Source: Acidimicrobiales bacterium
Lineage (GTDB): Bacteria > Actinomycetota > Acidimicrobiia > Acidimicrobiales > JAUJNH01
Length of the DNA: 64,000 nucleotides
Direction: 5' to 3'
Assembly (NCBI GenBank): GCA_030448245.1
Contig: JAUJNH010000006.1
Location: 15,788-79,787, forward strand
The notes under the pieces are model-generated. The model saw only the letters and a program-made list of their open reading frames with translations, had not been told where the DNA came from and did no database searches. This document shows, in pieces, positions 7,073 to 30,415 of the stretch. The position numbers and the translations under genes were made by a program. Every line of letters starts with the position of its first letter. Position 1 is the stretch's first letter.

Positions 7073-7076
7073 CGCC

Positions 7077-7598: not shown

Positions 7599-7757
7599 CG
7601 CGAGCCACGGCAAATCCCGAGCCTCCGAGCGGCGGCGAATCCTGGCGCGGCATCAGGCTGGGTACCCTCCGCAAGGATGGCGGGGCTCGAGCGCCGGACC
7701 GACTCGTGGGGCCGCGCGGCGCCCGCCCTGTCGCCGAAGCTGCCGCGCACCGCCTCG

Positions 7758-11502: not shown

Positions 11503-11614
11503 GCGGAGCAGCCGGCCGCCTCCGCCTGGACCGAGGGGCGGGGCCCGGCGCGGGACGATCCCCGAGGGAAGGCGGAGGCAGGAGGGCGGCTGCGGAGCGG
11601 CTGGAGGACACGGC

Positions 11615-11893: not shown

Positions 11894-11967
11894 CCCCGGG
11901 AGCCGGATTCGGGAGCATGCGGTCGGGGAACCACGCTTCTCCATCGACAGGACCAGGAGGGGACCAC

Positions 11968-12333
11968 ATGCAAGGGATCCTGCGCCTCACGGCCACCGCT
12001 GCGATCGGAGGCCTGGTCCTCCTCGGCTGCGGGGGTGAGGGCAGCTCCGACAGCCCCGATGACGACGTGACCGTCAACAGCTGCGCCCCCACCCCCGGCG
12101 GGGGCAAGCCCGAGGCGGGCGGGGCGATCACCAACCGCACGACCAAGGCAAGCGGCTACACCTTCCGCGTGCGGTTCCTCGACCCGTCCGGCAACGAGGT
12201 GAGCATGGGGACGACGGCCGTCGCCAGGGTCGAGCCGAACGGCACCGCCACCTGGACGCTGCAGGGCGCCACCAGCGCGAACGGCCCCCTCACCTGCAGG
12301 GTGTCGAACGTCACCCGCACCGCCATCCCCTGA
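11968..12333 (+). CDS. Lipoprotein (hypothetical)
   Basis: AGGAGG RBS 8 nt upstream; signal peptide with lipobox LLGCGG. Confidence 0.5.
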   Translation: MQGILRLTATAAIGGLVLLGCGGEGSSDSPDDDVTVNSCAPTPGGGKPEAGGAITNRTTKASGYTFRVRFLDPSGNEVSMGTTAVARVEPNGTATWTLQGATSANGPLTCRVSNVTRTAIP

Positions 12334-12433
12334 CGCCTGAGCGTCGGAGGCAAACTCGTGTCTTAGGGGCCCTACGATCTGATGCGGGGCAAGATCACGC
12401 GATCTACCTGACCAAGCTGGGGGGCGCGGCCGG

Positions 12434-13762
12434 GTGCAGCGTGGGACGCGCGTCGGCGAGACTGCTCCGGTGGTTCGGCGACCGGACGCGTCCCGATCCG
12501 TCGGAATCCTGCGGGTCCTGGTGGGCGTCATCGCCGCCGCCACCGTCGCCGGCCTCGTCGTGCTGTGGCCGAAGGGCGACGCTCCAGACCTGTCGGCCAC
12601 CACCGAGGGGATCGGCTTCGTCGACGCCACCGTGACGGGCGTCGACATCGTCCCGTGCACCGACCCCTCGGAGGGCCTGCCGACCGAGTGCCAGTCGGTC
12701 GCGGTGGACATCACGTCGGGCTCCCGTCGGGGTGAGGCGGCCTCGTTCCTCAGTTCCCTGGTCGACTTCAGCGCCCCCGACTTCGCGCGAGGAGACCGGG
12801 TGGTGCTGGCCGAGAACGAGCTGGCCCCTCCCGAGTTCCGGTTCAGCTTCGTCGAGCTGCAGCGCGAGGTGCCCCTGCTCCTGCTCGGCGTGGCCTTCGT
12901 GGTGGTCGTCGTGGCGTTCGGGCGGTGGAAGGGGGTCCGGGCGCTCGCCGGTCTGGCCGCCAGCCTGGCGCTCATCGTCGGGTTCCTCCTGCCGTCGCTG
13001 CTGCGCGACAACAACCCGATTGCCGTCGCGCTGGTCACGGTCTCCGCGGTGGCCTTCGCGGCCCTCTACCTCACCCACGGCGTGTCGATTGCCACCACCG
13101 TCGCCCTGCTCGGCACGCTGGCGGCGATCGCTCTCACCACCTTCCTCGCCTGGATCGTGACCACGGCCGCGAACCTGACCGGGATCTCCGACCAGAGCTT
13201 CCAGGTGCTCCGGGTCACCGCAGAGGCGGTCGAGCCGCAGGGGATCCTGCTGGCGGGCATCGTGGTGGGGGTGCTGGGCGTGCTCGACGACGTGACCGTG
13301 ACCCAGGTGTCGGCGGTCGGCGAGCTGCGACGGGCCAACCCCAGCCTGCCCCGTGCGGCCCTCTACCGTTCCGCCATCCGCATCGGCCGCGACCACGTGG
13401 CGTCGGCGGTCAACACCCTCGTCCTGGCCTACGTGGGCGCCTCACTGGCCTTGATGCTGTTCTTCCTGCAGGAGGGGCGGTCGATCTCGCAGGTGGTGAG
13501 CCGGGAGATCGTGGCCATCGAGATCGTCCGCATGCTCGTGGGGAGCATCGGCCTGATCCTCTCGGTCCCCCTGACCACGGCTCTCGCCGTGGCGACGGGC
13601 GTCGCCGGCGGCGGCGGGCACGTCCACGGCGGCCGGCGGCGTCAGCGCGAGGCGGACGACGAGCGGGCCCGGGAGCGGGCCCGTCATGATCGCCGCCGCG
13701 CCCGTCGGCGGGCCACGGGCGAGGGCGCCGAGCCGAGGGTGGATCCACCGAAGGAGGCGTGA
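12434..13762 (+). CDS. YibE/F-family integral membrane protein
   Basis: 442 aa; N-terminal TM, extracytoplasmic domain, then six or more TM helices with YibE/F-like organisation. Confidence 0.65.
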   Translation: MQRGTRVGETAPVVRRPDASRSVGILRVLVGVIAAATVAGLVVLWPKGDAPDLSATTEGIGFVDATVTGVDIVPCTDPSEGLPTECQSVAVDITSGSRRGEAASFLSSLVDFSAPDFARGDRVVLAENELAPPEFRFSFVELQREVPLLLLGVAFVVVVVAFGRWKGVRALAGLAASLALIVGFLLPSLLRDNNPIAVALVTVSAVAFAALYLTHGVSIATTVALLGTLAAIALTTFLAWIVTTAANLTGISDQSFQVLRVTAEAVEPQGILLAGIVVGVLGVLDDVTVTQVSAVGELRRANPSLPRAALYRSAIRIGRDHVASAVNTLVLAYVGASLALMLFFLQEGRSISQVVSREIVAIEIVRMLVGSIGLILSVPLTTALAVATGVAGGGGHVHGGRRRQREADDERARERARHDRRRARRRATGEGAEPRVDPPKEA

Positions 13763-13899
13763 CTGCTCCCGACGACCATCGCCTCGGGCCGTGCGCGCCG
13801 GAACGGCGGAGAGCTCACCGACAGCCAGAGGTTCCCAGGGGGGAGGAGGATCAGGCCTCGCCAGCGGCTGCGGCGTCCGGCTCCCTCCTCCGTGAGGCG

Positions 13900-14544
13900 T
13901 CAGATGCCGTGGTCGGCGGCCCAGCGGATCAGCTCGGCCCGGCGGGAGAGGTGGAGCTTGCCCAGGATGTTGCGCACGTGGTTCTCGACCGTCTTCTCGG
14001 AGATGAACAGCTGGGCCCCCACCTGCTTGTAGGTGCAGCCGCGGGCCACCTGCTGGAGCACCTCCCGCTCGCGCTCGGAGAGCGGGTTGCGGCCCGTCTC
14101 CTTGCGGGCCACCCGCCGGAACTCGCCGAGCAGCATGGCGGCCAGCTTCGGTGAGAACGGCGGCTCGCCCTCGACGGCCAGCAGGAGGCGGCGCCGCAGC
14201 TCGGGGCCCGGCGTGTCCTTGGTGAGGTAGCCGAAGGCCCCCGAGGCGACCGCCTCCAGGAGGTCGGCCTCGTCCTCGGAGACGGTGAACATCACCACCT
14301 TCACCTGCTCGGCGAAGCGCGAGGCGACCTCCTTCACCACCCGCAGCCCGCCGCCTTCCGGCATGCGCAGGTCGCAGACGACCAGGTCGGGCCGGTGCTG
14401 CTCGATGGCGGCGATCGCCTCGGCGGCGTCGCCGGCCTCGGCCACCACCCGCAGCGGGTCACCCAGGTCGGCCCGGACGCCGGCCCGCACGGTCGGGTGG
14501 TCGTCGGCGATGACGACGGTGGTGGTGCGGACGATCTCGGTCAC
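13900..14544 (-). CDS. NarL/LuxR-family response regulator
   Basis: 214 aa from GTG; receiver domain (VVIADDHP, phospho-acceptor DLRMP) plus LuxR HTH (ISEKTVENHVRNILGKL). Confidence 0.85.
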   Translation of the reverse strand: MTEIVRTTTVVIADDHPTVRAGVRADLGDPLRVVAEAGDAAEAIAAIEQHRPDLVVCDLRMPEGGGLRVVKEVASRFAEQVKVVMFTVSEDEADLLEAVASGAFGYLTKDTPGPELRRRLLLAVEGEPPFSPKLAAMLLGEFRRVARKETGRNPLSEREREVLQQVARGCTYKQVGAQLFISEKTVENHVRNILGKLHLSRRAELIRWAADHGI

Positions 14545-14557
14545 GCGTGGCTCCTGC

Positions 14558-15658
14558 TCATCGGAGGTTGGCGGGGTGGGGGATGCAGACGCGGACCTCG
14601 CAGCCGTCGCCCACCGCGGTGACCACCTCGGCCGCACCCCCGGCGTCGCGGACCCGGCCGTGCACGCTGCCCGTGAGGCCGTGGCCGGCCGGGACGAGGG
14701 CGGGGTCGAAGCCGGTCCCGTCGTCGCGCACGGTGACCAGCAGGCCGTTGGTGGCGTCGTCGAGGTCGGCCAGCACCACGGCCGAGCGGGCGGCGCCGTG
14801 CTTGGCCGCGTTCGTGAGGGCTTCTCCCACCGCCGCGGCCACGGCCCGGACGGTGGCTGGCCCCGCCTCGGCGTCGGGGGTGACCGTGACCGAGACGTGC
14901 AGGTCGCCCCAGCGCTCCTCGACCGCCACGGCGGCGGCCCGCAGGGCGGCGGGCAGGGTGCCCGGATCACGGTCGTCGCCGAAGAGGTACAGGCGCAGGT
15001 CGCGCTCGGCCGAGCGGGCCACCTTGGCCACCTCCGGGTCGGTGGTCCGGCGTTCGACCACGGCCAGGGCCTGCAGCACGGTGTCGTGCAGGTCGGCGGC
15101 CACCCGCTCGCGAGCGCGGGCCTCGGCCAGGTCGTCCTGCGCCCTGCGCAGCAGCCGGCACGTGCCTCCGGTGACCGCGCCCACGACCATCCACACGGCG
15201 ATCGCCGAGAGCGACGCCAGCAGCTCGCGGCCCTCCCGTCCCACGGGAACGCCGGCGACGGCCTCGGCCGACAGCCGGGCCAGGCCGAGGGTGAAGCCGA
15301 CGCCGGCGGCCCACCAGGGACCCAGAGCGGCACCGGCCACCAGCAGCACGGCGATGGGGACGGCGCCGGCCAGGTGCTGGCCGGTGGCGCGGCTCTGCAG
15401 CACGAACCCGTCGGCGGCCACCAGGGCCACGACCAGCGCCACCTCGACCGCCACCGCCTCACGCCGCAGCGCCAGCCGCCAGCCGTCCCCGGCCGCCAGC
15501 CGATGGGCGATCCCGGCCCAGACGGCCATGGCCGCCAGGAGAGCAAGCGCCACGGCCGGTTGCCTGATCCGGTCGCGGTTCCCAACGGTGACGGCGAAGG
15601 CGAAGCCGAGCACGACCCAGCGCAGCCAAGCAGCCCCGACCAGGACGCTCCGTTCCAC
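14558..15658 (-). CDS. Sensor histidine kinase (HisKA_3/NarX-type)
   Basis: 366 aa; N-terminal TM helices, H-box ADLHDTVLQALAVV, HATPase_c motifs (TNAAKHG, DDGTGF, GHGLTG); 13 nt upstream of the regulator. Confidence 0.8.
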   Translation of the reverse strand: MERSVLVGAAWLRWVVLGFAFAVTVGNRDRIRQPAVALALLAAMAVWAGIAHRLAAGDGWRLALRREAVAVEVALVVALVAADGFVLQSRATGQHLAGAVPIAVLLVAGAALGPWWAAGVGFTLGLARLSAEAVAGVPVGREGRELLASLSAIAVWMVVGAVTGGTCRLLRRAQDDLAEARARERVAADLHDTVLQALAVVERRTTDPEVAKVARSAERDLRLYLFGDDRDPGTLPAALRAAAVAVEERWGDLHVSVTVTPDAEAGPATVRAVAAAVGEALTNAAKHGAARSAVVLADLDDATNGLLVTVRDDGTGFDPALVPAGHGLTGSVHGRVRDAGGAAEVVTAVGDGCEVRVCIPHPANLR

Positions 15659-15669
15659 GCCCCTACCTT

Positions 15670-16060
15670 GCTACGTCGCGGCGGTCCTTGCGACAGCGGG
15701 CTGCCGTCGAGCGGGTCGGCGGCAGCCGTGTCTCCCGAACTCACCGCCACCCGCGCCCGCCGGCCCAGGTCGGCGGCGGTGGCCTCGACGGCGGCTTCCC
15801 CCTCGGCGGGCCGCGGCGATCGCCGCCTCCAGCGCCGCCGTCGCGGCGGCGCGGTCGCCGGCCGCGAGGTGGTTCTCGGCCGCCCGCACCCACGCCCGCC
15901 CCTCCGGGACTGGGTGGCCGAGCGCGGCCCATGCGGTGGCGGCGGCCTCCTACGCGCCCGGGACGACGGCGCCCGAGAGCTCGGTGCGGTGGCCGATCGG
16001 GGCAGGCAGCGCCGTTCCGAGCGCGCAAGCCTGACGAGAAGTAGACATCCGTCGTGAGCC
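15670..16060 (-). pseudogene. Remnant of a TPR-containing (LuxR/LAL-type?) regulator with in-frame stop
   Basis: Minus-strand frame reads ...EAAATAWAALGHPVPEGRAWVRAAENHLAAGDRAAATAALEAAIAAA, interrupted by TAG and frame changes. Confidence 0.2.
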
Positions 16061-16649
16061 ACGTGACGAGCAGCGCGCCGCTACCGGAGTCAAGGGCGTC
16101 AGCTCAGCCGAGTTCACCGGCGCCGGCATCGCCTCGCCGCAGTACCCGAAGAACGGACCGGCATCGAAGAAGGGCCCCTACCGGGCCCAGGTCGCCCAGA
16201 AGGTCAACGACCTGCGCAGCGGCACCCATGCCAACGCCACCGCTGCCTGGGCTGTCGAAGCCTTCCGAAGGATCAGCGGCACCACCCTGGCAACGGCTCA
16301 CAACACGCCAGTTGCCCTCAACGCCATCCACCGACGCGCCGCACGATCAGCGTGACGGTCGACAAGAAGTCGGGGGCAATCACCCACCTCGGGTGACCCC
16401 GACGGCGCCCTTGTCTCGAGGCAGAACGTGGGACGCTCCGGAGACGTCGATGAGGACGGACACGTACGCGGGTATGTCCTCTACGATGAGCGATCCGCGT
16501 CGAGGGCTTCCGGGGTCGCCCCAGGACTGGGGGAAGCGCCTCTCTCCAGGAGCATCTCGGCCGCTGCTCGGAGCGCCATGAAGGCGCGGAAATGGCAAGG
16601 TGCGACCTTGCACACCTGAAGGCCAGGAGTACGTGCGAGGGTTGCCGCA

Positions 16650-17267
16650 ATGGTGCACGGACGGGAGCTCGAGGCCGGCTCGGCCCGGGCCATCGAACGT
16701 CGGACGTGGCGTGGCCGGCTCCAGGCCGCTGGTCGCGGCGCGCTGGGCGACCTGCTCGACCCTGTGGCGACCCGTGCGGCCGGCGGCGACGAGGAGGCCC
16801 TCGAGGACCTCATCTGGGCGGTGGACGAGCTGCACCTGGCCCGCCCGGCGGTTCGCCGCCTGGTGGTGCAGGAGTCCGACGCCGAGGAGGTGGAGCAGGA
16901 CGTGCTCGTGGCGGTGGCCGAGACCATTGCGGGGTTCCGGGGCGACGCCCGGTTCACGACGTGGCTCCACCAGCTGGCCCGCTTCAAGGCGATCGCCCAG
17001 CTCCGCCGGCGGAAGGAGTCCTTCGTGCTCGATGAAGAGATGGGAGACGCCGCCCGCATATCGTCCATCATCGCCACCCGCACCGTCCTCGACGAGGCCA
17101 TCGGGGGGCTGCCCGACCTCTACCGGGCCGCCGTCGTTCTGCGGGACGTCGAGCAGCGCCCCTACGCCGAGGTGGCGGAGCGGCTCGGCGTGAACATCAA
17201 CACGGTGAAGGCCCGGGTGGCCCGGGGCCGGGCCCTGGCCGCGTCCCGGTTGCGGGCCGGCCGGTGA
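16650..17267 (+). CDS. ECF-type RNA polymerase sigma factor
   Basis: Sigma-70 region 2 (FTTWLHQLARFKAIAQLRRRK) and region 4 (YAEVAERLGVNINTVKARVARGR). Confidence 0.75.
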   Translation: MVHGRELEAGSARAIERRTWRGRLQAAGRGALGDLLDPVATRAAGGDEEALEDLIWAVDELHLARPAVRRLVVQESDAEEVEQDVLVAVAETIAGFRGDARFTTWLHQLARFKAIAQLRRRKESFVLDEEMGDAARISSIIATRTVLDEAIGGLPDLYRAAVVLRDVEQRPYAEVAERLGVNINTVKARVARGRALAASRLRAGR

Positions 17268-18589
17268 GCCCTACCATTCCCCGGCGCCTGGGCCGCTACG
17301 AGGTCATCGAGCTGCTCGGCACCGGCGCCTTCGCCACCGTCTTCAGGGCCCGTGACGACCGGCTCGACGCCGACGTGGCCATCAAGGTGCTGGCCGAGAA
17401 CCACAGCTTCGATCCCGACCTGCGGGAGCGTTTCATCAGCGAGGGCCACCTCCTGCGTCGGGTCGACAGCCCCCACGTGGTCAAGGTCTTCGACCTTGGG
17501 GAGACCGTCGCCGGCCAGCCCTTCCTGGTGCTCGACCTCGCCGCCGGGGGAGACCTGGCCGCCCGACGCCGTGGCCTGGGAGGACACAGCCCGACGCTGG
17601 CCGACCTGCTGGCCGTGGCCGCCCAGGTGGCCGCCGCGCTGGGAGCGCTCCACGGTGAACGCGTCGTCCACCGGGACGTGACGCCCGGCAACCTCCTCAT
17701 CCACGGCCACGCCAACGGACGCCCTCCAACGGCCGTGTTGGGCGCCGGGGAGCGCCTGATGCTCGCCGACCTCGGGCTCTCGAAGGACCTGGCGGTTGCC
17801 TCCGGCCTCACCAAGGGGGCGGGGACGACCGGCTTCACCCCGCCCGAGCAGGGAGCGGGCAGCTGGGTGGACCCCCGGGCCGACATCTGGTCCGCCAGCG
17901 CCCTGCTCGTGTGGCTGATCCTCGGCGCTGCCCCCGACCCGGGCGGGGCTTGGCATGCCGAACTGACCGAGCGTGGCTGGCCCCCTGGCCTCCTGGACGA
18001 GCTGGGCCGGGGCTTGGCGAACGGGCCCGACGACCGCCATCAGACGGCGGAGGCGTGGGTGGCGGCCTTGCAGGAGGCGGCCCGGCCGCCGGTGGCGCCT
18101 CCACCGCCCGTCGACGGCAGCGTCCCTGCAGGCGAGAGCAGATGTGTAAGCCTTGGGCCTCCCGAGGAACGTCGTCCTCGGCGCCCTGTCCTGGTCGGCG
18201 GGCTGGGTCTGTTGGTGTTGCTCCTGGTGACCGGCGGCTGGTTGCTCGGGCGCGCCTCCGTGAGCGGCTCGCCGCCGTACGGACGGACCCGGACCGAGCG
18301 GCTGGCCGGGGGGCAGGTGAGGGCCACCGCCCGCCTGGGTCCTGCTCGTGTCGCCATCACCGGTCCGGAATCTGTTCGGGTGGGCCAGCGGGCTGAGTAC
18401 CGCTCCGAGACGAGTGGCGTGGTCGGGTACCGGTGGCTGGCTCCGGACGGCCGGTCGTATGAGGATGAGCCGACCTTGATCGTCGACCCCACCTCCGAGG
18501 GGACGGCGACGGTGCGCCTCCTGGGCCAGAGCGCCGAAGGTGACGTCGTGGTGGCCGAGGTACGCGTGACCGTAGGACGACGAACCTGA
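17264..18589 (+). CDS. Transmembrane Ser/Thr protein kinase
   Basis: Start overlaps sigma factor stop (ATGA); Hanks kinase motifs (GxGxxA loop GTGAFATV, AIK, HRDVTPGNLL, DLG, TPPE); one TM helix then ~110-aa extracytoplasmic C-terminal domain. Confidence 0.8.
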   Translation: MSPTIPRRLGRYEVIELLGTGAFATVFRARDDRLDADVAIKVLAENHSFDPDLRERFISEGHLLRRVDSPHVVKVFDLGETVAGQPFLVLDLAAGGDLAARRRGLGGHSPTLADLLAVAAQVAAALGALHGERVVHRDVTPGNLLIHGHANGRPPTAVLGAGERLMLADLGLSKDLAVASGLTKGAGTTGFTPPEQGAGSWVDPRADIWSASALLVWLILGAAPDPGGAWHAELTERGWPPGLLDELGRGLANGPDDRHQTAEAWVAALQEAARPPVAPPPPVDGSVPAGESRCVSLGPPEERRPRRPVLVGGLGLLVLLLVTGGWLLGRASVSGSPPYGRTRTERLAGGQVRATARLGPARVAITGPESVRVGQRAEYRSETSGVVGYRWLAPDGRSYEDEPTLIVDPTSEGTATVRLLGQSAEGDVVVAEVRVTVGRRT

Positions 18590-18718
18590 GCCGCTTCCTG
18601 CAACGGGCGTGCGCAGGCCGACAGGGTGCCATGCCCCCGGTGCGCGCGGGCGCGGCCCCTCCAGCGGACCTCCCGTGGTCTCGAGCCGGTCGCTGATCCC
18701 CCTAGGCTTCGGGCTGGC

Positions 18719-19153
18719 GTGGAGAGGTTCTTGTCAGTGGCGGTCCTGTTGGCGCTGGCCGGCTTGGTTCTCTTGGTCACTGGTTTCCGCCGCCTGCGCC
18801 GCAGCCGGTCCTTCCGGACCCGGGCGGCGCGGGCCACCGTCGTGGTCATGGAGCAGCGCTTGCAGGCCCCGGCGGCGCTTCCGGGTCTGCCTACTTCCCG
18901 GTGGCGGTTCCAGACGGCCGACGGCGGCACCGTGACTTTCATCTCCGACATCGGCTCGATGCCGGCTCATGCTCCCGGGAGCGGCATCGGAGTCCTCTAC
19001 GACCCGGACCGACCGGCTGATGCCCGCATCGACTCCCCCCTCCGGACGAGCGGACGAGCCGCTCTCGAGCTGATCCTCGCGGCGTGCATGCTCGGCGGGA
19101 GCCTGACGGTCCTCGCCGCCCGATGGGCGATCTCCCTGCTGCCTGCTCCGTGA
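18719..19153 (+). CDS. DUF3592-like membrane protein
   Basis: TM helix, beta-rich middle, C-terminal TM, as in DUF3592; start uncertain (GTG at 18719 chosen). Confidence 0.4.
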   Translation: MERFLSVAVLLALAGLVLLVTGFRRLRRSRSFRTRAARATVVVMEQRLQAPAALPGLPTSRWRFQTADGGTVTFISDIGSMPAHAPGSGIGVLYDPDRPADARIDSPLRTSGRAALELILAACMLGGSLTVLAARWAISLLPAP

Positions 19154-19348
19154 GCTCGCCGGATGAGGCCTACGTCGTGCGCCGCCGGCTGCCGTGGCGG
19201 GTGGGCCTGCGGGGCACGGTGGGGCGTGGGTGTGATCGTGCTGGTGATCTCACCGGCGGGCGGCAACGGTGCACCAGGGTCTCAGGGCCATCGTCGAAGA
19301 CCCGGCTGATCCCTGCCCGTGGCTCCCGGGCTACGACGACCGATCGTC

Positions 19349-19402
19349 GGCTGGACCCTGGATCACCACCAGCTCGGCTGGACCCTGGATCACCACCAGC
19401 TG
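19349..19402. repeat. Perfect 27-bp tandem duplication (GGCTGGACCCTGGATCACCACCAGCTS x2)
   Basis: Direct reading of the intergenic region upstream of the 19532 lipoprotein. Confidence 0.7.
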
Positions 19403-19531
19403 GCCCAGGCGGTGCGGGCGTTCGCGCCCCAGGTCGAGGTCCTCCACCTGCAGCAGGCGCCGCGAACATGAGTTTCTTGCAACCGATCCGCCGCACGGCG
19501 CGACCAACGTGGTGAACCAGGAGGAACGCCA

Positions 19532-20119
19532 ATGACCATGCCAACCATCTCCCACCGACTCCTCGCCCTCGGAGCGGCGCTCACCGTCGCCCTGACGGCC
19601 GGCGCCTGCTCGAACCCCTTGGAAGAGAAGGCCGACACCACGAGCGGCGTCGCCACCACCGCGGTGGTCGGGACCACCACCAAGGAGGCATCCAGCACCC
19701 AGGGATCACAACCGCCGAGCACCGCGGAACGGGCCGCCATCGCTACCAGCGGTGACCCGGCGAGCACAGGAGGGGGCATCGAGATCACCTCCCTCAAACG
19801 GGACTCCAACCAGCTCGTGACCCTTCGGTTCTTCCTGGTGAACAAGGGCACCAAGAACGTCACGGTATCCAGCCGCTTCGGGGCCGGTGGCACCCGGGAT
19901 GTCTCCGAGGTCTACCTCGTCGACCCCGACGGCCTCAAGAAGTACCTCACCGTGCAGGACACCGATGGGGGCTGCCTGTGCAGCACCAACCTGTTCGACG
20001 TGAAGCCTGGTGACCGGCTCGAGCTCTTCGCCACCTTCGCGGCGCCGCCCCCGGACGTGAAAGCGGTGACGGTGGTGGTGCCCTCGTTCCAGCCCGTCAA
20101 CGACGTCCCCCTGTCATGA
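19532..20119 (+). CDS. Lipoprotein, Thr/Ser-rich linker plus beta-rich domain (DUF4352-like)
   Basis: AGGAGG RBS upstream; lipobox LTAGAC; C-terminal ~110-aa globular domain. Confidence 0.55.
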   Translation: MTMPTISHRLLALGAALTVALTAGACSNPLEEKADTTSGVATTAVVGTTTKEASSTQGSQPPSTAERAAIATSGDPASTGGGIEITSLKRDSNQLVTLRFFLVNKGTKNVTVSSRFGAGGTRDVSEVYLVDPDGLKKYLTVQDTDGGCLCSTNLFDVKPGDRLELFATFAAPPPDVKAVTVVVPSFQPVNDVPLS

Positions 20120-20694
20120 TCCGCCGGTTGCTGGCCGTTGCCGTGCTGCTCACGGTCCTTGTGCCGGGCGAGGCGTCCGCCCAACAACAGGTGAAGCCCA
20201 AGGTGCTCGACCTCAAGCTGCGGGTCGTCGACCTCCGGCTGCGGGTCGAGAGCCCACAGGGCGTGCGGGGCGAGTCTCCCTCCCAGGTCGACTTCGCCAT
20301 CGCCGGCGACGTGCTCTTCGCGTTCAACGAGGCGACCCTGACGCCGGCGGCGGCGGCAATCCTGTCCGGCCTGGCCAACGAGATCCGGGCCCAGGCAGCC
20401 GGCCCGGTCAAGATCGTGGGGTACACCGACGCGGTGGGGGAGGACGCCTTCAACCTCGACCTGTCCCGGCGGCGGGCAAAGGCGGTAGAAGCGGAGTTGC
20501 GCCGCCTCCTGGCGGGCGCAGTGTCGGAGTTCACCACCGACGGCCGGGGGGAAGCCGACCCGGTGGCGCCCAACAAGAACCAAGACGGCTCCGACAACCC
20601 GCAGGGCCGGGCTCGGAACCGTCGGGTGACCGCTACCTACGCCAAACGCTCCGCTTCCTCAGCGCCGACGACGTCATCGGCGAAGGGGCCATGA
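20116..20694 (+). CDS. OmpA/MotB C-terminal domain protein
   Basis: ATGA overlap with upstream lipoprotein; signal peptide; OmpA_C motifs (FAFNEATLT, VKIVGYTDAVG, NLDLSRRRA, NRRV). Confidence 0.7.
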   Translation: MIRRLLAVAVLLTVLVPGEASAQQQVKPKVLDLKLRVVDLRLRVESPQGVRGESPSQVDFAIAGDVLFAFNEATLTPAAAAILSGLANEIRAQAAGPVKIVGYTDAVGEDAFNLDLSRRRAKAVEAELRRLLAGAVSEFTTDGRGEADPVAPNKNQDGSDNPQGRARNRRVTATYAKRSASSAPTTSSAKGP

Positions 20695-21512
20695 CGGGCG
20701 GCACCACTCGGCCGCACGGCCGAGCGTCGGAGCGGGCTTCCAGCCGGCCGCACCGGTCGCCCACCCGGGTGCCCGAGGCGGTCGAGGCCAAGATCTGCCG
20801 TGTGCGGCAAGCTGAGAAGGTCGGCGCCGACCGCCTCGCCATCCACCTGGGCGCTCCGGCCTCGACGATCCACCGCGTCCTGGTTCGCCACGACCTCAAC
20901 CGGCTCGACCGGCAGACCGCCCAACCGATCCGCCGCTACGAACGGGCCCGCCCCGGCGAGTTGGTCCACGTCGACGTCAAGAAACTCGGGAAGATCCCGC
21001 CCGGCGGCGGCCACAAGATCCACGGCCGGGCCGCCACCAGCAGCGGCGGCCGGCGCCGGCTGCGGATCGGCTACGCCTACCTCCACACCGCCATCGACGA
21101 CCACAGCCGCCTGGCCTACACCGAGGTCCTCGCCGACGAACAAGGCCGCACCTGCGCCGGCTTTTGGCGTCGAGCCAACGCCTGGTTCGCCGCCCGGGGC
21201 GTGATCGTCGAGCGGGTCCTGACCGACAACCACTTCTCCTACCGGGGACTGCTGTTCAACCAGGCGCTGGCCGACACCAGGATCGTGCACAAGTTCTGCC
21301 GGCCCTACCGGCCCCAGACCAACGGCAAGGTCGAGCGGTTCCACCGCACCCTCCTCGAGGAATGGGCCTACGTCCGCCCCTACACCCGAGAAGCCGACCG
21401 CACCCGCGCACTTGCGCACTGGCTCCACCGCTACAACCATCACCGAGTGCACACCGCCATCGGAGACGCCCCCATCACCCGCGTCACCAACCTCCCCGCG
21501 AAACACAGCTAG
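20691..21512 (+). mobile_element. IS481-family transposase (integrase core), N-terminally truncated
   Basis: rve domain with DDE residues (HVDVKK...D, ...TDNHFSY, ...E); only the second HTH (SRPHRSP) is present and the reading frame begins inside the OmpA gene, so ~60 N-terminal aa are missing. Confidence 0.7.
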
Positions 21513-21527
21513 TCGGCGCAGACCGAA

Positions 21528-21546
21528 CTGCCGATCTGCTCGGCAG
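21528..21546 (+). terminator. Hairpin CTGCCGA-TCTGC-TCGGCAG just after the transposase stop
   Basis: 7-bp perfect inverted repeat; coordinates approximate (+/-2). Confidence 0.3.
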
Positions 21547-21896
21547 CTTCTTGCGACCGGTCGAAACCGAGTCGGCACTACGTCCTGCAAGCTGGTCTGG
21601 CGGGCGAGCGAACGGGGCGCCCAGAACTTTCGGCCGCCGACCGCAACGTCGTCGCCGACGTACCTGTCGGGCGCCCGGGAACGGCACCAGCCGAGCGCTC
21701 GGTATCGATCGGGCTCTCAACTCGTGCTTGGCGCTGGCTTACCAGGGTCCGCGACGGGGCGTGGACCGTCCTCTGGGATGGGTTGTCGGTCCGGGAGCTT
21801 CGTAGCCGGCTTCCTGGGGTCGTGGCGGCGAGCGAACAGCTGGGCTTGCACGGGCTGTGGGGGAGGGCGATCGCGAGCTGCCCGCCTGCTCCAACG

Positions 21897-22960
21897 TCAT
21901 GGCTTTGGCGCGATCCTCAGTATCCGGTCGTCGTCGCTCGCTGGGCTGCCCCGGCCGTCCCGGTTGGAGGTGGTGAGGTAGACGGCGCCGTCGGGCCCGA
22001 CGGCCACGTCTCGCAGCCGCCCGTGGTCGTCCTTGTAGAGGACCTCTTCGTCGGTCACTCTGCCGTCGCCTCCCAGGGTCAGTCGGTGCAGGCTCTCGCC
22101 TCGGAGCGTGACGAACAGGAGCGAGTCCTTCCACTGGGGGATGAGGTCAGCCGAGTACACGACGCAGCCGGCAGGAGCGACCGCCGGGGTGTAGTTCCTG
22201 ATCCCGTTGCCCGACGTGGCTGGCCATCCGCCGTCAAAGCCCTCTCGGAGCAGGTTGACCTCGTCCCTGCCGCTCGGTCCGTGCTCGGTGGCGAACAGCC
22301 TTCCGTCGGGTGCGAAGCACAGCCCCTGCACGTTGCGGTGGCCCTTGCTGAACACCGTCACGTTGCCTGAGTCGGGATTGACCCGTAGGACCTTGCCGTT
22401 GAGGCTGCCGACGTCGGCAGCGAGGTCAGGTTGGGCAGCGTCACCGGTGGAGGCGTAGAGCTGGCCGTCAGGACCCAGGCGAAGGCGTCCACCATCGTGG
22501 ATGGCTGCTCTGGTGATGCCTTCCACCAAGACCTTCTGCGACCCGTCTGGTTCGAAGCGCACGATCCGGTTGTCGCGCTCGGTGGTGTACATCACGAACA
22601 TCCGCCCCCGCTGGTCGATCTCCAGTCCCATCAGCCCACCCTCGCCCGACTCGGAAACGCCGTCGATCTGCCGCGACGTCCCGCCGGCGCGGCCCAGGCG
22701 ACCGGAGCGCTCGGTGTACCAAGGGCGCCCTGAGGGTCCCAAGCCAACGACCACACCGTGTCAAGGTTGCGGGCAACCTCGGTGACGGCCAACGGCATCG
22801 GGCGCCCGGTCGCCGCGGCCGTCGTGCTTGGGAGGCCGCTCGGTTCGGCGCTCAGGCTCGTGGTCGTGTTCGTCGACACCGACGTCCGTTGGCCAGAGCC
22901 GCAGGCGGTGGCGACGACGAGGAGGGCCATCACCCAGAGGGAACGCGAAGGCATGGTCAC
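21897..22960 (-). pseudogene. PQQ-dependent sugar dehydrogenase (soluble glucose/sorbosone dehydrogenase family) lipoprotein, frameshifted
   Basis: N-terminal part (lipobox VVATACGSG; NLDTVWSLAWDPQGAL) in ORF 22631..22960 and the rest (RPWYTERSGRL, beta-propeller repeats) in ORF 21897..22754; frame change near 22735. Confidence 0.6.
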
Positions 22961-23098
22961 AACATCTCACGCCGCGAGCCGGTCCGGACCGCGGCCACGT
23001 CGGGTGGCCCGAGGCTCGAGAACGCCGGGAACGTCACCAGCCGAGCGCGAGCTATCGCTCACGCTTAGTCCCCCGGAGCCATCGGCGTTCGTCGGCCG

Positions 23099-23330
23099 TC
23101 AGTAGGCGATAGCGATGCGGTACCCACCGTCGTACTCCTGTTGCTCCCGGAGGTGGCCGTGGCGGTCGTCCCATGCGCCGGATTCAAGGTCTGCCTTCAA
23201 CTGTGCCGCGCCGCATTGGCGGTCGGTCTCCGGGAGCATCGCCAGCCACGACGTGCCGGCCTGGACCTCGGGATCTAGGTAGGCGTCCGGCCTGGCCCAG
23301 AAGCAACGGGACGTCGATACCGGTACCTTG
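23099..23330 (-). pseudogene. Possible C-terminal remnant of a SAM-dependent methyltransferase
   Basis: Only the last ~75 aa look protein-like; the rest of the ORF overlaps the LLM gene on the opposite strand. Confidence 0.15.
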
Positions 23331-23335
23331 CCGCC

Positions 23336-24300
23336 ATGCCACTCCCCGATGGCATCGGCTTCTGGTTGCAGGCCGAGCCGGCGGATGGTGGGTCCTGGGT
23401 TCAGTTGGCGCGCCACGCCGAGGGCATCGGCTTCGAGGGCATCTGCCTCGGTGACCACCCCGGTCTCGGCGCCTCGCCGTTCGTCGCGCTGGCCGCGCTC
23501 GCCCAGTGCACGTCGACTATCCAGCTCGGCACAGCGGTGCTCAACATCGGTACGTGGAGTTCCCTTGCACCTGGCGACAGAGGTGGCCACGCTGGTCGCG
23601 CTCAGCGGAGAGCGGGTCGTCCTTGGAGTCGGTGCCGGTCACAACCCGACGGAGTGGACGGCGACCGGCCGAACCTTTCCGACTGTGAGCCAGCGGGTGG
23701 AGCACATGGTCGAGGTCGTGGACGCGGCCTGGGCCCTGCTCCGCGGCGAGGTCGTCACGCTCCAGACAGACCACGTGCGGCTCCACGAGGCTCAGCTGCG
23801 CCGGCCGCCGGGTCCCCAAGTCGCCATCCCGCTCCTCGTCGGCGGCAACGGTCGGGGCGTGCTGCGGTACGCCGCCCGGGCCGCCGACGTGATCGAGCTC
23901 ACCGGGCTCGGCCGCACGCTCCCCGATGGGCAGGCCCACATGCCGGACTGGGCGCCCACGGCGGTGGATCAGCGCGTCGCGCTCATCAAGGTCCAACGCG
24001 GTGACCGCCCGTACCGCCTCAGCGCGCTCGTCCAGCGATGCACGATCACTGACTCCCGGACCGACGCCCTCCAGCCTTTCGAGCCGAGCTGACCTAGCTC
24101 ATGGGGCATCAACAGGCCCCCACCATGTCAGACCTGTTGCAGACGCCCTACGTGCTCGTCGGGTCGGAGAACGAGATCCTCCACCAGTTCCGCGCCAACC
24201 GGGATCGATGGGCATCACCAGGTACACCGTCCGCACCGAGGCCCTCCATGCCCTGGCGCCGATCATCGACCGGTTGCGCCTCGAAGCAGGCGAGCGCTGA
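23336..24300 (+). pseudogene. LLM-class (luciferase-like) flavin-dependent oxidoreductase, multiply frameshifted
   Basis: Family-typical segments lie in three different frames: N-terminal (GFEGICLGDHP, LGTAVLNI), middle (VVLGVGAGHN), C-terminal (TPYVLVGSENEILHQF and GITRYTV). Confidence 0.55.
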
Positions 24301-24792
24301 CCTACCTCGCGATCGGCGAGAAGCCGCCCTTCCCACCCGGCGTGATCCGGACATGGTCGATCGACGAGGTAATGGAGGTCGACGGACTCCAAGACTCCAT
24401 CAGCATGTTCTTCCACGCCGGCCCACCGACGTGAGGACAGACAGCGTCATACCATCGCCGCCTCACGTCGCTCGGAGGTGGAGCCGACTCGAGAACGCTC
24501 GGGCTCGGCATTCCTGAAGGAGCGGGTTTTGTCAAGACCGTGTCGGCCGCCAGGCCGACTCCATCTCCATCTGGGCCCCCTTCCTCTTCGCGGGGTTGTC
24601 GTTGGGGGGTTCTCGCAGCAGAGTCCGCTTCAGCGGTGGCCTCGCCGAGCTCGGGGGCCTGTCATTCCTTCGTCACGCCCAAGGGTTGGGTGACATGCTG
24701 CGATCAGGCCACAACCGGTTGGGCTCAAGCACAAAGCCGGCCGCTTCGGGCCATGCCGATAATCGAGCTCGCAACCGGTTGCGCCGAGCCGG

Positions 24793-25020
24793 TCAGCCCG
24801 TCTCGGCCAGGCAACGGATCTCACCGTCGCGCAGGCCGTAGTAGACGAGCGTCAAGAGCTTCCGGGCGACGGCCACACGGGCCTTGGCCGTTCCCCTCCG
24901 CTGAGCGATCCGGTGGTAGTCGGCCCGCAGCTTCGGACCGCCCCGCCGGTTGCCGGACGCCTCGATCGCCGCCCACCGCACCAGTGGTGAGCCCTGCTTG
25001 GTGATCGACCCCCGGTGCAC
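24793..25020 (-). mobile_element. IS110-family transposase C-terminal fragment
   Basis: 75-aa ORF ending ...ARVAVARKLLTLVYYGLRDGE, characteristic IS110 transposase C-terminus; no upstream remainder detectable. Confidence 0.45.
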
Positions 25021-25454
25021 CGTCGTGTCCGACTCGTGATGCTTGGGGGTCAGGCCCGCCCACGAGCACAGCTGCCGAGGCCCCGGGAACTCGTGCTCCG
25101 CGGATCAGGTAGACCAAGCCTTCCGTGAAGCCGAGTACGGCACGTCCTGCTCGCTCGGTAACAGCGTAAGAACTGGCCTGGATGGACAGTTGACCTGTTG
25201 GCCTTCGGTCTTCCTGTTGTCCTCCTGGCCACGATGCTCGCATTGCGAGCTGGCAGGGACAAAGGTCGGGTCGCCACCGTGCACGCACCTTCGCAGCGAC
25301 GTCAAGTAGACGCTCCAGGCTCCCGATCGGGCGGACCCCTCGCCGAGGTTCATCGTCATCTTGAGGCTGCCGACACTGCCCGGTAGCGGCACCAGCCGGG
25401 CGCGAGGTAACGCACGACGGGATCTCGTGAGAGGACAGCGGGCTGGTTGGTGTC

Positions 25455-26387
25455 GTGAGCGGGGAGACTTCCCGTGTGAGCGTGGACACCCAGCCGATCG
25501 ATACCTGGTGTCGAGAGGTGCTGGGCGCGAGTGTCTCCGCGACCATCTTCTCAAGAGGACGCCTCGCACAGGTCATCGGGGTCCAGCTCGACGACGGCCG
25601 GAAGGTGGTGGTGAAGGTTCGGCCGGCATCTCCTCGCCTGGCTGCCGTCGTCTCTACGCAGCGTCACCTCCATCAGTCCGGGGTTCCCTGTCCCCGGCCG
25701 CTCGCCGGGCCGCTGCCCTTCCGCGGTCAGGCGATCACCGCAGACTCGTACGTACCCGCGGACCAGCTGCCTGGCGGGGTTCCACCAGCAGACGCCTGCG
25801 CCGAACTCCTCGCCGCCATCGTGGCCGCCGGACCGCCGGCCTCTGCCGTGGCGGAACTCAACCCGGCGCCACCATGGGTCGGTTGGGACCACCCTGGTGA
25901 CCAGACGTGGCCACCGCCTGACGATCTCGATGCCGACCTCAACCGCTCCGCAGCCAGCGACTGGCTTGACGCCGCGGCTCGCCGGGTCCGCCAGGCGCTC
26001 CTTGCGCACGCCTCGGCACCCGTCGTCGGTCACGTTGATTGGGAAGCGCACAACATGGGATGGGACGGCGAGAGCCCGATCGTGGTCTACGACTGGGACA
26101 GCCTGGCGATCCGAACCGAGCCCACGATCGTGGGGGCCGCGGCGACGGTCTTCGCCTCGACGACCGGTAGGACGGTCGCGGCATCCGTCAGCGACACAGC
26201 GACGTTCTTGGACAGCTACCAACGGCGACGCGAGCCGTTTCCAGCCGAGGACATGAAAGCTGCGTGGGCAGCAGGGCTGTGGACGCTGCTGTACAACGCG
26301 AAGAAGGAGACAGCCGGTGGGGGCGGCGGCTACCTGAAGCATCTCGAGGCTGAACTCGAGCAGCGGATGCGACTGGCCGGACTTTGA
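25455..26387 (+). CDS. Phosphotransferase-family protein (APH/choline-kinase-like)
   Basis: 310 aa; Brenner-type HxD region (VGHVDWEAHN) and DxD (YDWD) as in aminoglycoside phosphotransferase-like kinases. Confidence 0.55.
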   Translation: MSGETSRVSVDTQPIDTWCREVLGASVSATIFSRGRLAQVIGVQLDDGRKVVVKVRPASPRLAAVVSTQRHLHQSGVPCPRPLAGPLPFRGQAITADSYVPADQLPGGVPPADACAELLAAIVAAGPPASAVAELNPAPPWVGWDHPGDQTWPPPDDLDADLNRSAASDWLDAAARRVRQALLAHASAPVVGHVDWEAHNMGWDGESPIVVYDWDSLAIRTEPTIVGAAATVFASTTGRTVAASVSDTATFLDSYQRRREPFPAEDMKAAWAAGLWTLLYNAKKETAGGGGGYLKHLEAELEQRMRLAGL

Positions 26388-26549
26388 GCCGCCGCCGGAC
26401 CGGGACGAGGCTCTGGGGCGGCCTCAACAGCCGCGGGTGGGCCCAGAACGCCCAACCAGAACGCCTTCATGCAGCCCAGGCGTCGCCACCAGGGCGCCGA
26501 TCGGGCGCCGGGGTACCGCACGTCCCGAGGGCCCGGTAACGCTCGAGTC

Positions 26550-26945
26550 TCACCCCTCGTGTTCCCGACCTCGGCCTTCGTCGGCCGGGAGATCCACTTC
26601 GTGTCCGCAACCGTGGCAGAACATGCCGTCCGGGCCCCTCCACACCCGGTTCGTAGCGCAGTGCATGCACCTCAGGGAGGACTGCAGCGTCCCTCGGCAC
26701 GCAGTGCATCGACGTTCGAATCGGGATCCACCGGCGATCCGGGCCAGAGCCGCTCCGCAGAGGGGACATCGACGTGGGCGGCGTCGATCGGCTCTGCTCA
26801 GCACCCGGACAGATTGCCGCATGATCGAAGCGTCGCTCGTGGCACCCCACCCACGGATCGCGGGTCGGTGACGTCGGCACGTACGCGGTGATGGCCTCAA
26901 CCGTGGCACCGGACACCTCGACCAGTCACCGCTCGGGATCGGCAC
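26550..26945 (-). CDS. Possible small zinc-ribbon protein
   Basis: CPLCG...CTACRG...CMHCA...CHGCG cysteine pairs; weak coding signal. Confidence 0.2.
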   Translation of the reverse strand: MPIPSGDWSRCPVPRLRPSPRTCRRHRPAIRGWGATSDASIMRQSVRVLSRADRRRPRRCPLCGAALARIAGGSRFERRCTACRGTLQSSLRCMHCATNRVWRGPDGMFCHGCGHEVDLPADEGRGREHEG

Positions 26946-27625
26946 ATCCGTGCGATTGGTGACGAACAGGCGCTTGGTGTGTCTCGCAGCGCTCCTCGCA
27001 GGCCCGGCCCCCGATCCCGAGCTGAGGCACCTGGCATGAGCGCTCCCTAACGGCGGGCTGCCGAAGTGGTTCGGCCGGAATCTGACGCATTGTGGGGCAC
27101 GATCCAGACTGGCGCCACCTCAGAGGTCGTGGATGATCATCCCTTCCTCATCATCCGGGTCAGGTCGGAGGGTCTGTTCGCTCCCGGAGCTGACGGTGAG
27201 CGCTTCATCAGGACCACCCAACGACTGCGACAAGGCTGACGGCAGTCACCTCGTGGCCGTCGGCTCTGCCTGTGCCTCGAGCGTGGGGTTGAGGTCGAGC
27301 GCGCGACGGCGGGGAGCCGGGCGGCCAGCCCCGCGCACGGCGGAACGGGGTAGGCCTGGAAGAGGAGCCGGCGCCAGCGGGCGCCGGCCGCCTCGGCAGC
27401 GAACTGGGCGTGGCGCTCGGCCACCATCTGAGCGGTGAAGTTGGGGTGTCCGAGCATGGGCCATTGTTCGCACCCGAGGTAGGCACCCGCAATCGGTTAA
27501 GCGTCCGTCCGACGTCAGCCCGAGCCGCCGTGACCTGGTCACGACCAGCATCTGGCAGGCCAGGATCCGGGAGGCCTACCTGGAACAGCCCTCGTCGCCG
27601 CCTCGTCCTCGCGGCGCCGATCCGC

Positions 27626-29437: not shown

Positions 29438-30415
29438 TTGACCATGGTGCGGAGGCGGGCGGCCGCGGGGTTGCTCATCGTGGCGGCCTTGGTTGGATGC
29501 AGCGGTGGGAGCCGGGATGAGGCAAAGCCCTCTCCAGGCGGTGCAAACGTCGCCCCGGCACGCGTTCCCCAGGTCGGCGACTGCCGCGGGCCTATCTCCA
29601 AGGAGATCTTCCGCTCCAGCTTCGATGCACGTCCGACGGTGCCATGCGAACAGGTGCATGGATCCGAGACGGTCTTCGTTGCTCAGCTCTCGGCTGAGCT
29701 GGCCGGGCTTCCGCACGACAGGATCTCCGCCATGTTCGATGTCAAGTACGGGACCGCGGAGCTGGATCCGGTCTTGAGCGAGTGCGAGGTCGCGTTCGAA
29801 CGCTATGTCGGCGAGACCCGGTTCGCACCGGACGCGACGCTGCCCAGCAACCTTTCACTGGCTTTCTTCATGCCGTCGTTCGATGAGTGGGGCGAGGGTG
29901 CGCGGTGGGTTCGGTGTGACGCCGTCACGGCACCGTTCACTGGGCAGGAGACGAGGGGGACCACCGAGAGCCTCCGGGGCAGAGCGGCACGTGATCCACG
30001 GGCGCCGTGGCGCGTGTGCTTCAACGAAACCTCACGACCGGAGAACCTGGACGAGGGCCGTTCCGAGGGAAGCCCGTTCACGTCGTGCGACCAGCCGCAC
30101 AACGTCGAGGAGATCATGCGGATCAGGGTGGCTGATCCCAAGGTCGACATGGCCGCCGATGACACGAGCGTCATCACGAGCTATCTCACCAGAGAGTTCG
30201 GCCCGCGCTGCGTCGATCGTGCTGCCGCCCACCTCGGCCTGTCCAGGAGGGCCACGGAGCAGCGCGAGGACATCGAGTTGAGTGTTTTTGCGATCGATCC
30301 AGCCGCGTGGCCGACCAGCTCCCGAGCTCGCGCCGTGGCTTGTCGTGCCACCACCCAAGAGCCCACTGTCGGCACGCTGGAGGGTCTGGGGAGCAGGCCG
30401 CTGGTTCGGTCCTAG
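29438..30415 (+). CDS. Lipoprotein with septum-formation-family-like Cys-containing domain
   Basis: Lipobox LVGCSGG; paired conserved Cys (VGDC...C, C...C). Confidence 0.45.
   Translation: MTMVRRRAAAGLLIVAALVGCSGGSRDEAKPSPGGANVAPARVPQVGDCRGPISKEIFRSSFDARPTVPCEQVHGSETVFVAQLSAELAGLPHDRISAMFDVKYGTAELDPVLSECEVAFERYVGETRFAPDATLPSNLSLAFFMPSFDEWGEGARWVRCDAVTAPFTGQETRGTTESLRGRAARDPRAPWRVCFNETSRPENLDEGRSEGSPFTSCDQPHNVEEIMRIRVADPKVDMAADDTSVITSYLTREFGPRCVDRAAAHLGLSRRATEQREDIELSVFAIDPAAWPTSSRARAVACRATTQEPTVGTLEGLGSRPLVRS

Follow-up and report, generated by a model that had tools for sequence, protein, structure and literature searches.

What kind of DNA separates the OmpA-like lipoprotein gene from the genes for CsbD and an ATP-dependent DNA ligase in contig JAUJNH010000006.1 of an Acidimicrobiales bacterium (assembly GCA_030448245.1)? 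We analyzed positions 15,788 to 79,787 of this contig, a 64-kb stretch referred to here as the window, in which a patch of ∼6.5 kb lies between intact core genes. An earlier note, made from the sequence alone, had described the patch as a degraded, horizontally acquired island or a scar left by insertion sequences (ISs). We find that it is a strain-variable accessory region in the genome of a desert-soil actinobacterium, composed of broken ISs, a pair of dead enzyme genes, the stubs of two more genes and one kinase-like gene that is intact. In other words, it is an ordinary IS-scarred, decaying accessory region whose parts come from known families. The reading that we favor, with a probability of roughly 80%, is that of a non-essential patch, variable among strains, which was built up and then broken down by mobile elements and relaxed selection. 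The coordinates of its features are collected in Table 1.

The patch stands out first by composition. The window as a whole has a G+C content of 74%. When GC is computed per 500 bp, values in the patch are 0.65–0.70, compared to ∼0.74 elsewhere in the window, and local minima of 0.61–0.64 occur near 24.36, 25.1 and 27.06 kb, in line with the low-GC stretches mentioned in the earlier note. All nine consecutive 2-kb segments over 21.5–27.5 kb are outliers in tetranucleotide usage (z 1.6–2.9), and just one 2-kb segment in the rest of the 64 kb has a z of at least 1.5. Coding periodicity is similarly affected. Strong third-position GC periodicity was seen in 24% of the 150-nt segments of 21508–27189, versus 86–89% in both flanks, and no other 5.7-kb stretch of the window has a lower value. 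Sliding-window analyses of this kind, which the earlier note had suggested as a check, thus mark the patch as atypical by every measure: it is the strongest outlier of the 64 kb in both composition and coding periodicity, to a degree that exceeds chance.

The patch also differs between close relatives. Contig JAUJOI010000014.1 of assembly GCA_030447705.1 (hereafter L081) encodes the OmpA-like protein identically, and its nucleotides 1–10624 match window positions 10114–20738 at 99.75%, with 23 substitutions and 3 indels. All three indels are intergenic, so that the two assemblies show zero coding indels over this 10.6-kb flank. Homology stops at 20738 and resumes at 21508. From there, L081 17560–20579 corresponds to window 21508–24546 at 97.6% identity, with 35 substitutions and 27 indels of 1–4 nt in ∼3 kb. 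A further source of comparison is a set of short-read contigs near-identical to window DNA, obtained by Illumina 2x150 sequencing of desert-soil metagenomes from the Qaidam Basin (runs SRR24765285 and SRR24765286; PMC12624003).

Both enzyme genes of the patch are broken. The first, on the minus strand, corresponds to a pyrroloquinoline quinone (PQQ)-dependent sugar dehydrogenase; most of it is contained in an ORF (open reading frame) at 21897–22754, with the N-terminus in another frame (22631–22960). Intact homologues (P0121–P0123) are 344–352 aa long and 90–94% identical, and in tblastn they align to the window in two frames joined at residues 66–70. The lesion is a single −1 frameshift, with one base missing at ∼22727 (CCCTTGGTAC, where the frame expects CTN TGG TAC). 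Members of this family are expected to have a full-length beta-propeller ORF of ∼345–355 aa with a signal peptide; here the ORF is split. The second gene, for a TIGR03621-type F420-dependent luciferase-like monooxygenase (LLM) oxidoreductase, is spread over all three frames, as seen by three-frame reading and tblastn. The frame shifts at ∼23556–23562, 24067 and 24210, a TAG stop codon interrupts the gene at 24095, and one more indel, of 1 nt, lies at 24294. Stitching the frames with the aid of the L081 sequence gave a repaired protein of 321 aa, with 85–87% identity over 99–100% of its length to intact 321-aa proteins. TIGR03621 is the closest family of the repaired protein, which scores 207.7 bits, below the cutoff of 213.15, and the uninterrupted ORF of ∼321 aa typical of that family is lacking in the window. 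The earlier note had described the enzymes as multiply frameshifted. This holds for the LLM gene, with its three frameshifts and stop codon, and holds in part for the PQQ gene, which is frameshifted at one site, not several. Programmed frameshifting was considered and rejected, as there are several lesions, one of them is a stop codon, and the set is not the same in both strains. Both genes are best annotated as what they appear to be, dead pseudogenes.

Intact, contiguous copies of these genes in a relative had been named in the earlier note as the outcome that would point to assembly error. The opposite was found: in L081, the same PQQ and LLM genes are more fragmented than in the window. 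One frameshift per gene is shared. Nucleotides 22707–22900 are identical in the two assemblies, hence the PQQ frameshift is common to both, and the LLM frameshift at ∼23556–23562 likewise lies in an identical stretch. The other frameshifting indels are private, with ∼8 in PQQ and five in LLM for L081, and three in LLM, alongside the stop codon, for the window. Because two lesions are shared by assemblies that differ in both single-nucleotide polymorphisms and structure, the data argue for decay rather than a simple assembly artefact, and we conclude that the decay in the patch is real.

A skeptic might hold that consensus errors account for the frameshifts, in part or entirely, the region of this metagenome contig being hard to assemble, low in coverage or mixed in strains, and that the genes are really intact. 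The crowding of small indels in the patch (27 in 3 kb, most of 1–2 nt, versus 3 in the 10.6-kb flank) is what such errors could produce. Two of the three window-specific LLM indels fall in G or C runs of 3–4, and L081 is broken at five LLM and eight PQQ sites where the window is in frame, with the reverse at three sites. These observations are set against the frameshift in each gene that is identical in both assemblies and against a flank in which neither assembly has a coding indel. Nor can a nonsense substitution or the truncated stubs described below arise as indel artefacts, and no intact copy of the PQQ or LLM gene at ≥95% identity is on record. Indel errors are rare on the Illumina platform used for the 2x150 population samples, and a short-read contig from an independent sample (L084) is 99.9% identical to window 25061–26944, a span of 1.9 kb in which there is 1 gap. 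Taken together, these data make consensus error an unlikely explanation.

Two observations concern the flank in this comparison. Twelve of its 23 substitutions are clustered in 52 bp (11133–11184), inside a SNF2-family helicase gene (8044–11502), a pattern that would fit either a hypervariable tract or a short segment imported by recombination. Separately, at intergenic sites of the flank (12349, 16089 and 20725), there are ∼3 indels versus ∼3 substitutions, a ratio like the 27:35 of the patch. If real, this would indicate an unusually indel-rich spectrum in unconstrained DNA of the lineage.

At its left edge, the patch begins with the remains of an IS481-family element. The ORF at 20691–21512 scores 263.1 bits against the NCBIfam model for IS481 family transposases (NF033577; cutoff 224) and also matches Pfam rve and rve_3, which supports the truncated IS481 transposase listed in the earlier note and narrows the IS-derived DNA to 20739–21507. 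Residues 14–264 align with positions 46–283 of the 284 in the model, such that the N-terminus alone is missing. DNA identity to IS481 transposase genes of Streptomyces is 69–74%, and the match to a 318-codon Streptomyces gene begins 174 nt into the coding sequence. At the left junction, GGGCT/TCCAGCC (the slash marks the join here and below), host DNA is fused straight to codon ∼58. The right inverted repeat (IR) is intact (21486–21507; TGTGTTTCGCGGGGAGGTTGGT on the minus strand) and agrees with that of ISLxc2 from Leifsonia at 18/22 bases. It abuts the hexamer GCTAGT, the TAG of which (21510–21512) serves as the stop codon of the transposase. Elements of the IS481 family duplicate an NCTAGN target and take the transposase stop codon from it (PMC2516522). 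The window copy thus resembles the IS481 elements of actinobacteria (ISLxc2 of Leifsonia xyli, Streptomyces IS1649-like) in its rve-type DDE transposase, right IR, NCTAGN target and TAG stop. It differs from them in that deletion has removed the left IR and the DNA-binding part at the N-terminus, leaving the 3' 81% of the gene. A search for a second copy of the IR, allowing 3 mismatches, returned none in the window, and L081 has no copy. As judged from these ends, the IS481 copy is a remnant rather than a complete element and would be unable to move alone.

In L081, a 6.9-kb segment (10625–17559) stands in place of the IS481 remnant, with identical GCTAGT hexamers on both sides. The segment contains a DUF3592 gene, hypothetical genes and an IS3 element. 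We considered whether it is itself an IS481-type transposon and rejected the idea, as it has neither an IS481 transposase nor an IS481 IR. The most economical reading would have an ancestral, empty GCTAGT site struck independently in the two lineages. An alternative is that the IS481 element entered an ancestor resembling the relative, and that a 7-kb deletion followed.

A second element is represented by an even smaller remnant. Its outer part (24511–24564) corresponds to the outermost 54 nt, on the right, of an IS1111-like element; a 180-nt internal deletion follows, and the inner part (24579–25090) comprises transposase codons 239–337 and the 212 nt with which the 3' non-coding region begins, which hold putative seekRNA segments. 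The 5' 70% of the element is missing in the window. A 75-aa ORF (24793–25020) matches positions 271–342 of 343 in NF033542 with E=1.4e-10, a partial match below the whole-protein cutoff, and this is the C-terminal IS110 fragment of the earlier note. The fragment falls in a 90% cluster with full-length transposases of 337 aa, in two of which (P0366 and P0377) the DEDD catalytic N-terminal domain (PF01548), missing in the window remnant, is present.

The full element was found in two contigs, L089 and L090, and the window copy has 90% DNA identity to the latter. In L090, it spans 46–1708 (1663 bp) and encodes a transposase of 337 aa, composed of the domains DEDD_Tnp_IS110 and Transposase_20; a 448-nt non-coding region lies 3' of the transposase gene, and both ends have subterminal IRs (TGAAGGAGCGGGT). 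The window remnant keeps the right-end subterminal repeat. A long non-coding region and subterminal IRs are hallmarks of the IS1111 type (PMC11187229), and we assign the fragment to this type because the full copy in L090 has both. The 1663-bp element is a new one of the IS1111 type.

Not seen in the earlier note is a motif of 40–90 bp, termed R, that recurs through the patch. Its core reads GG[G/T]A[A/T]C-GGCAC-N8-CGCTCGGTA[A/T]C and lies in a unit of ∼90 bp. Copies were detected by nhmmer, with a long and a core model, and by repeat search. There are five copies in the window, a sixth into which the IS1111-like element has inserted and a seventh that is weak, all of them in the patch and all on the plus strand, regardless of the orientation of the genes; spacing is 0.25–1.5 kb, and single genes of the patch are bracketed by R. 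Outside the patch, neither the remaining 58 kb of the window nor 1.37 Mb from other loci of actinobacteria gave a match of at least 15 bits. R does recur in small contigs that carry homologues of patch genes or the full IS1111-like element (L085, L087, L089, L090). In L087, almost all gaps between genes hold a copy of R, always in one orientation, in a neighborhood of AAC(2')-like, GNAT, glyoxalase and LLM genes. The 3' half of R3 matches the 3' half of the R that lies downstream of the LLM gene in L087, and R4 was found as well in the Illumina contig L084.

What might R do? About half of the copies lie 17–116 nt 5' of a co-oriented start codon (APH 61–62, Ank 72, LLM 75 and GNAT 94 nt), and in L090 the ankyrin gene, which is intact there, has an orthologous R 72 nt 5' of it. 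Promoter scanning for sigma-70 sites gave zero. RNAalifold, applied to both strands of four copies, gave weak stems and no covariation, and an Rfam scan of the patch and window (E up to 1) gave no match. The ideas that R is a structured RNA or an attC hairpin were rejected, there being no conserved structure or inverted repeat. Our first choice is that R would serve a small regulon of accessory genes, as a promoter or other regulatory element. The more novel alternative is that it could be a recombination junction of gene modules. R is lineage-specific and lies next to detoxification- and resistance-like accessory genes; if it proved to be a regulon promoter or a recombination site, it would help to explain how desert-soil actinobacteria organize and exchange such genes.

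R is also the insertion site of the IS1111-like element. When metagenomes were scanned with the right-end 23-mer of the element, six further copies came to light (L089 and L091–L096 also hold the element), and the right-end junction is NCGGCA/TTCCTGAAGG in 8/8 cases, the GGCA/TTCCTGAAGG of the window being the same as in seven other contigs. In both the window and L090, the element sits inside R directly after GGCA (the cut follows ...AACGGCA). Where the pre-insertion site could be reconstructed, it scored as R in 3/4 cases, with 23 bits for the window, 17 for L090 and 15 for L093. These data identify R as the natural target of the element, which usually inserts inside it. The non-coding region of the element contains TTAACGGCATGG and CTACGTGCTTGA, which match the target flanks, and GATCGCAGCATG and GAAGGAATGAC, which match the IS ends. 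Such an arrangement of target-flank and IS-end matches has been described for seekRNAs (PMC11187229), suggesting that insertion of this element may be RNA-guided. Its target can be read from eight independent junctions, which would make the element a ready natural target-guide pair for work on RNA-guided recombinases. Two of the few differences between the non-coding regions of the window and L090 copies fall within the putative guide segments (TATCGGCA versus TAACGGCA, and TTGTGC versus ACGTGC).

Fixed-point insertion into a repeated host motif is shared with known members of the IS1111 family (ISFinder IS110 group), whose DEDD transposases are guided by seekRNAs or bridge RNAs, including ISKpn4 and ISPst6, which target attC, and ISPa11, which targets REP (repetitive extragenic palindromic) sequences; also shared are the transposase domains, the long non-coding region with its short matches and the subterminal IRs of the L090 copy. 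Set apart from these are the new target motif, R, the hosts, which are uncultured soil actinobacteria, and the state of the window copy, a dead remnant from which the catalytic domain is gone, as are 180 nt of the non-coding region.

That some IS1111 relatives target integron attC sites (PMC11187229) lends interest to a different view of the whole patch, namely that it is a cassette-type array, in which single-gene modules are separated by co-oriented R recombination sites, as in the attC arrays of integrons, and decay is secondary. The distribution of R is of this kind: five copies in 6 kb, along with the split sixth and weak seventh, share one orientation and occur nowhere else in the window, L087 has the same layout, R copies are spaced 0.25–1.5 kb apart, homology to other genomes ends near R edges, and an IS1111-type element targets R. 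Integron cassette arrays and CALINs (clusters of attC sites lacking integrases) likewise have short co-oriented repeats between accessory genes, and GNAT, glyoxalase and phosphotransferase genes are frequent cassette contents. To our knowledge, surveys of integrons report them as lacking in this phylum. R has neither the hairpin of attC nor its R'' and R' core sites, no recombinase gene is nearby, and the many R copies placed like promoters fit a regulatory element equally well. Moreover, the same genes occur in L085 and L086 without flanking R, and the left breakpoint of LLM homology is not at R. We therefore regard a cassette-type origin as improbable. It is similarly doubtful that R marks mobile single-gene modules in soil Acidimicrobiia-like actinobacteria, forming a non-integron cassette system whose junctions are parasitized by the IS1111-type element, much as integrons are by attC-targeting IS1111 elements; the patch would then be what is left of an array of such modules.

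Among the genes of the patch, the only one that is intact is the phosphotransferase-like gene noted earlier, which has the aminoglycoside phosphotransferase (APH) fold. Its 292 homologues are mostly ∼303 aa in length and form a large uncharacterized family. The residues invariant in this family (K47, H186, D188, N193, D206 and D208) are all kept in the window protein, as are the catalytic motifs HxDxxxxN and DxD, present as HVDWEAHN and DWD and invariant across the family. No NCBIfam resistance model matched the protein, and the PDB offered no relative other than a marginal match, 7S3L (E=0.019); on these grounds the label of aminoglycoside-resistance gene was rejected. The product is predicted to be an APH-fold kinase, to which we assign no substrate. 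It probably remains expressed, with the R copy 61 nt 5' of the start codon as a possible promoter.

Two other genes survive only as stubs, neither of which had been picked up in the earlier note. The ankyrin-repeat stub, seen at the DNA level only, ends abruptly at the 3' end of the PQQ gene. The methyltransferase stub was revealed by tblastn against plasmids, where annotated methyltransferases match it with their C-termini at 41–51% identity (best E=4e-13). The remaining stretches of the patch yielded little. For the Cys-rich ORF at 26550–26945, the idea of a conserved double-zinc-ribbon gene was rejected, as the Pfam matches are weak and below cutoff; tblastn gave no plasmid match, and a search of 1.8 billion representatives gave no real homologues. 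Ten other small ORFs in unassigned stretches have no Pfam match.

Table 1. Features of the patch and its left border, in window coordinates (R, recurrent motif described in the text)
Feature	Position	Strand	Remarks
OmpA-like lipoprotein gene	20116–20694	+	Pfam OmpA, NCBIfam OmpA-type; last intact core gene left of the patch
Patch as a whole	20739–27189		∼6.5 kb, between intact core genes
IS481-family remnant	20739–21507	+	5' end truncated; ∼58 codons and left end missing
GCTAGT, NCTAGN-type IS481 target	21508–21513	+	Abuts right IR (...AAACACA/GCTAGT)
R1	21637–21728 (core 21673–21710)	+	nhmmer E=1e-19 (long model), 2e-9 (core model); upstream of ankyrin stub
Ankyrin-repeat gene, 5' stub	21797–21894	+	blastn 81% over 103 nt to Ank gene of L090 (Pfam Ank_2)
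PQQ-dependent sugar dehydrogenase, pseudogene	21897–22960	−	Pfam GSDH (glucose/sorbosone dehydrogenase; PF07995), E=3.7e-53
R2	22985–23077 (core 23025–23060)	+	nhmmer; repeat families D1 and D2
Class I S-adenosylmethionine-dependent methyltransferase, 3' stub	23099–23305	−	∼67 codons and stop
TIGR03621-type F420-dependent LLM oxidoreductase, pseudogene	23336–24300	+	Pfam Bac_luciferase in two frames
R, 5' half ending GGCA, split by IS1111-like element	24485–24510	+	Compared with intact orthologous R, L087 4293–4329
IS1111/IS110-family remnant	24511–25090	−	24511–24564 and 24579–25090
R3	core 25131–25164	+	nhmmer, core model, E=4e-7
R4	25344–25417 (core 25378–25415)	+	nhmmer; 61 nt upstream of APH-like start codon
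APH-fold kinase-like gene	25476–26387	+	Intact, 303 aa; PF01636, 54 bits (cutoff 23)
R5	26471–26563 (core 26508–26544)	+	nhmmer; 121 nt downstream of APH-like stop codon
Cys-rich orphan ORF	26550–26945	−	Within low-periodicity DNA
Low-periodicity DNA without assignment	26564–27189	.	Holds Cys-rich ORF, weak R6 and the 27.0–27.2-kb GC dip
R6 (weak)	26929–26971 (core ∼26932–26963)	+	nhmmer

How could such a patch have formed? The closest intact homologues of its genes have DNA identities of 91% (PQQ, L086), 89% (LLM, L087) and 93% (APH, L085). Beyond the gene itself, the match to homologues in this range (88–93%) extends by a few to 200 nt, and their neighbors differ. Single-gene pieces may thus have come from related soil actinobacteria, where the closest homologues occupy unrelated neighborhoods, and would have been brought together by recombination and deletion. 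An IS481-family element entered GCTAGT just downstream of the OmpA-like gene and later lost its left end and ∼58 codons, and an IS1111-type element entered R downstream of the LLM gene, from which the 5' 70% was later lost, together with 180 nt in the 3' region. Inactivation befell the PQQ and LLM genes, and the ankyrin and methyltransferase genes were cut to stubs. Since then, the DNA of the patch, except perhaps for the kinase gene, would have drifted neutrally, accumulating indels and substitutions several-fold faster than the flanks. As a whole, the patch probably has no collective function. It resembles other pseudogene-rich variable regions and IS scars in its broken genes, IS fragments, composition, polymorphism and faster divergence, and differs from them in its small size (6.5 kb), its setting in a gene-dense, high-GC genome and its unusually high indel load per substitution. 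We see in it a textbook case of accessory DNA in a free-living high-GC bacterium, scarred by ISs and eroded once selection lapses.

Several points weigh against this reading. We infer horizontal origin from the atypical composition and the lack of synteny. A tRNA scan of the 64 kb found none, no integrase domain was detected in the scanned ORFs of the patch, and no direct repeats bound it. The degraded acquired island or IS scar of the earlier note fits every test that was run and is supported, acquisition being its tentative part: composition is atypical, the IS remnants belong to two unrelated families, the enzyme genes have full-length, intact homologues (85–94% identity) in other gene neighborhoods, and near-identical strains differ here. 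Of the marks of a classical genomic island, the patch has atypical composition and strain-variable presence; with no integrase, tRNA or att site, or flanking direct repeats found, that label was rejected. The indel-to-substitution ratio of 27:35 is far above typical bacterial mutation spectra and could mean that one or both assemblies contain consensus errors in this region. The window is the one source for both IS481 junctions and for the LLM lesions specific to it, and we treat these lesions as provisional. Also provisional is the right edge of the patch (∼27189), which was placed from the ends of short-read contigs (26944 for L084, 27189 for L082).

That the contig is a chimera, its mosaic made by mis-joining strains or loci, is suggested by the breaks in short-read contigs from the same environment (25061, 26944 and 27189) and the different structure of L081 at the left edge, yet this is the least probable of the explanations considered, as contiguity is independently backed by L081 for 21508–24546 and by L084 for 25061–26944, and the canonical junctions (IS481 IR with NCTAGN, IS1111 GGCA/TTCCTGAAGG) point to true insertions rather than assembly joins.

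The surroundings of the patch add a few details. To its right, the DNA ligase has its nearest relatives in Acidimicrobiia and other actinobacterial metagenome-assembled genomes, at 55–66% identity. A synteny scan via this ligase across 185,579 species genomes was uninformative, the best relatives having no neighbors in common. Look-ups of exact proteins, for the APH-like gene, two start variants of the ligase, the ORF at 29438–30415 and the IS481 ORF, gave no match. Between the patch and the CsbD gene lies a small ORF (27240–27457, minus strand) that has no Pfam match and shows a good signal in GC3 (G+C at third codon positions) over its first ∼70 codons (MLGHPNFTAQMVAERHAQFAAEAAGARWRRLL...). 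To the left of the patch, 17264–20738 holds four genes, encoding a Ser/Thr kinase, a DUF3592-like protein, a lipoprotein and the OmpA-like protein. With a GC of ∼0.70, these genes have strong GC3 periodicity in 54% of segments, compared to 86–89% in the flanks; the zone of atypical composition may begin to the left of the IS481 remnant.

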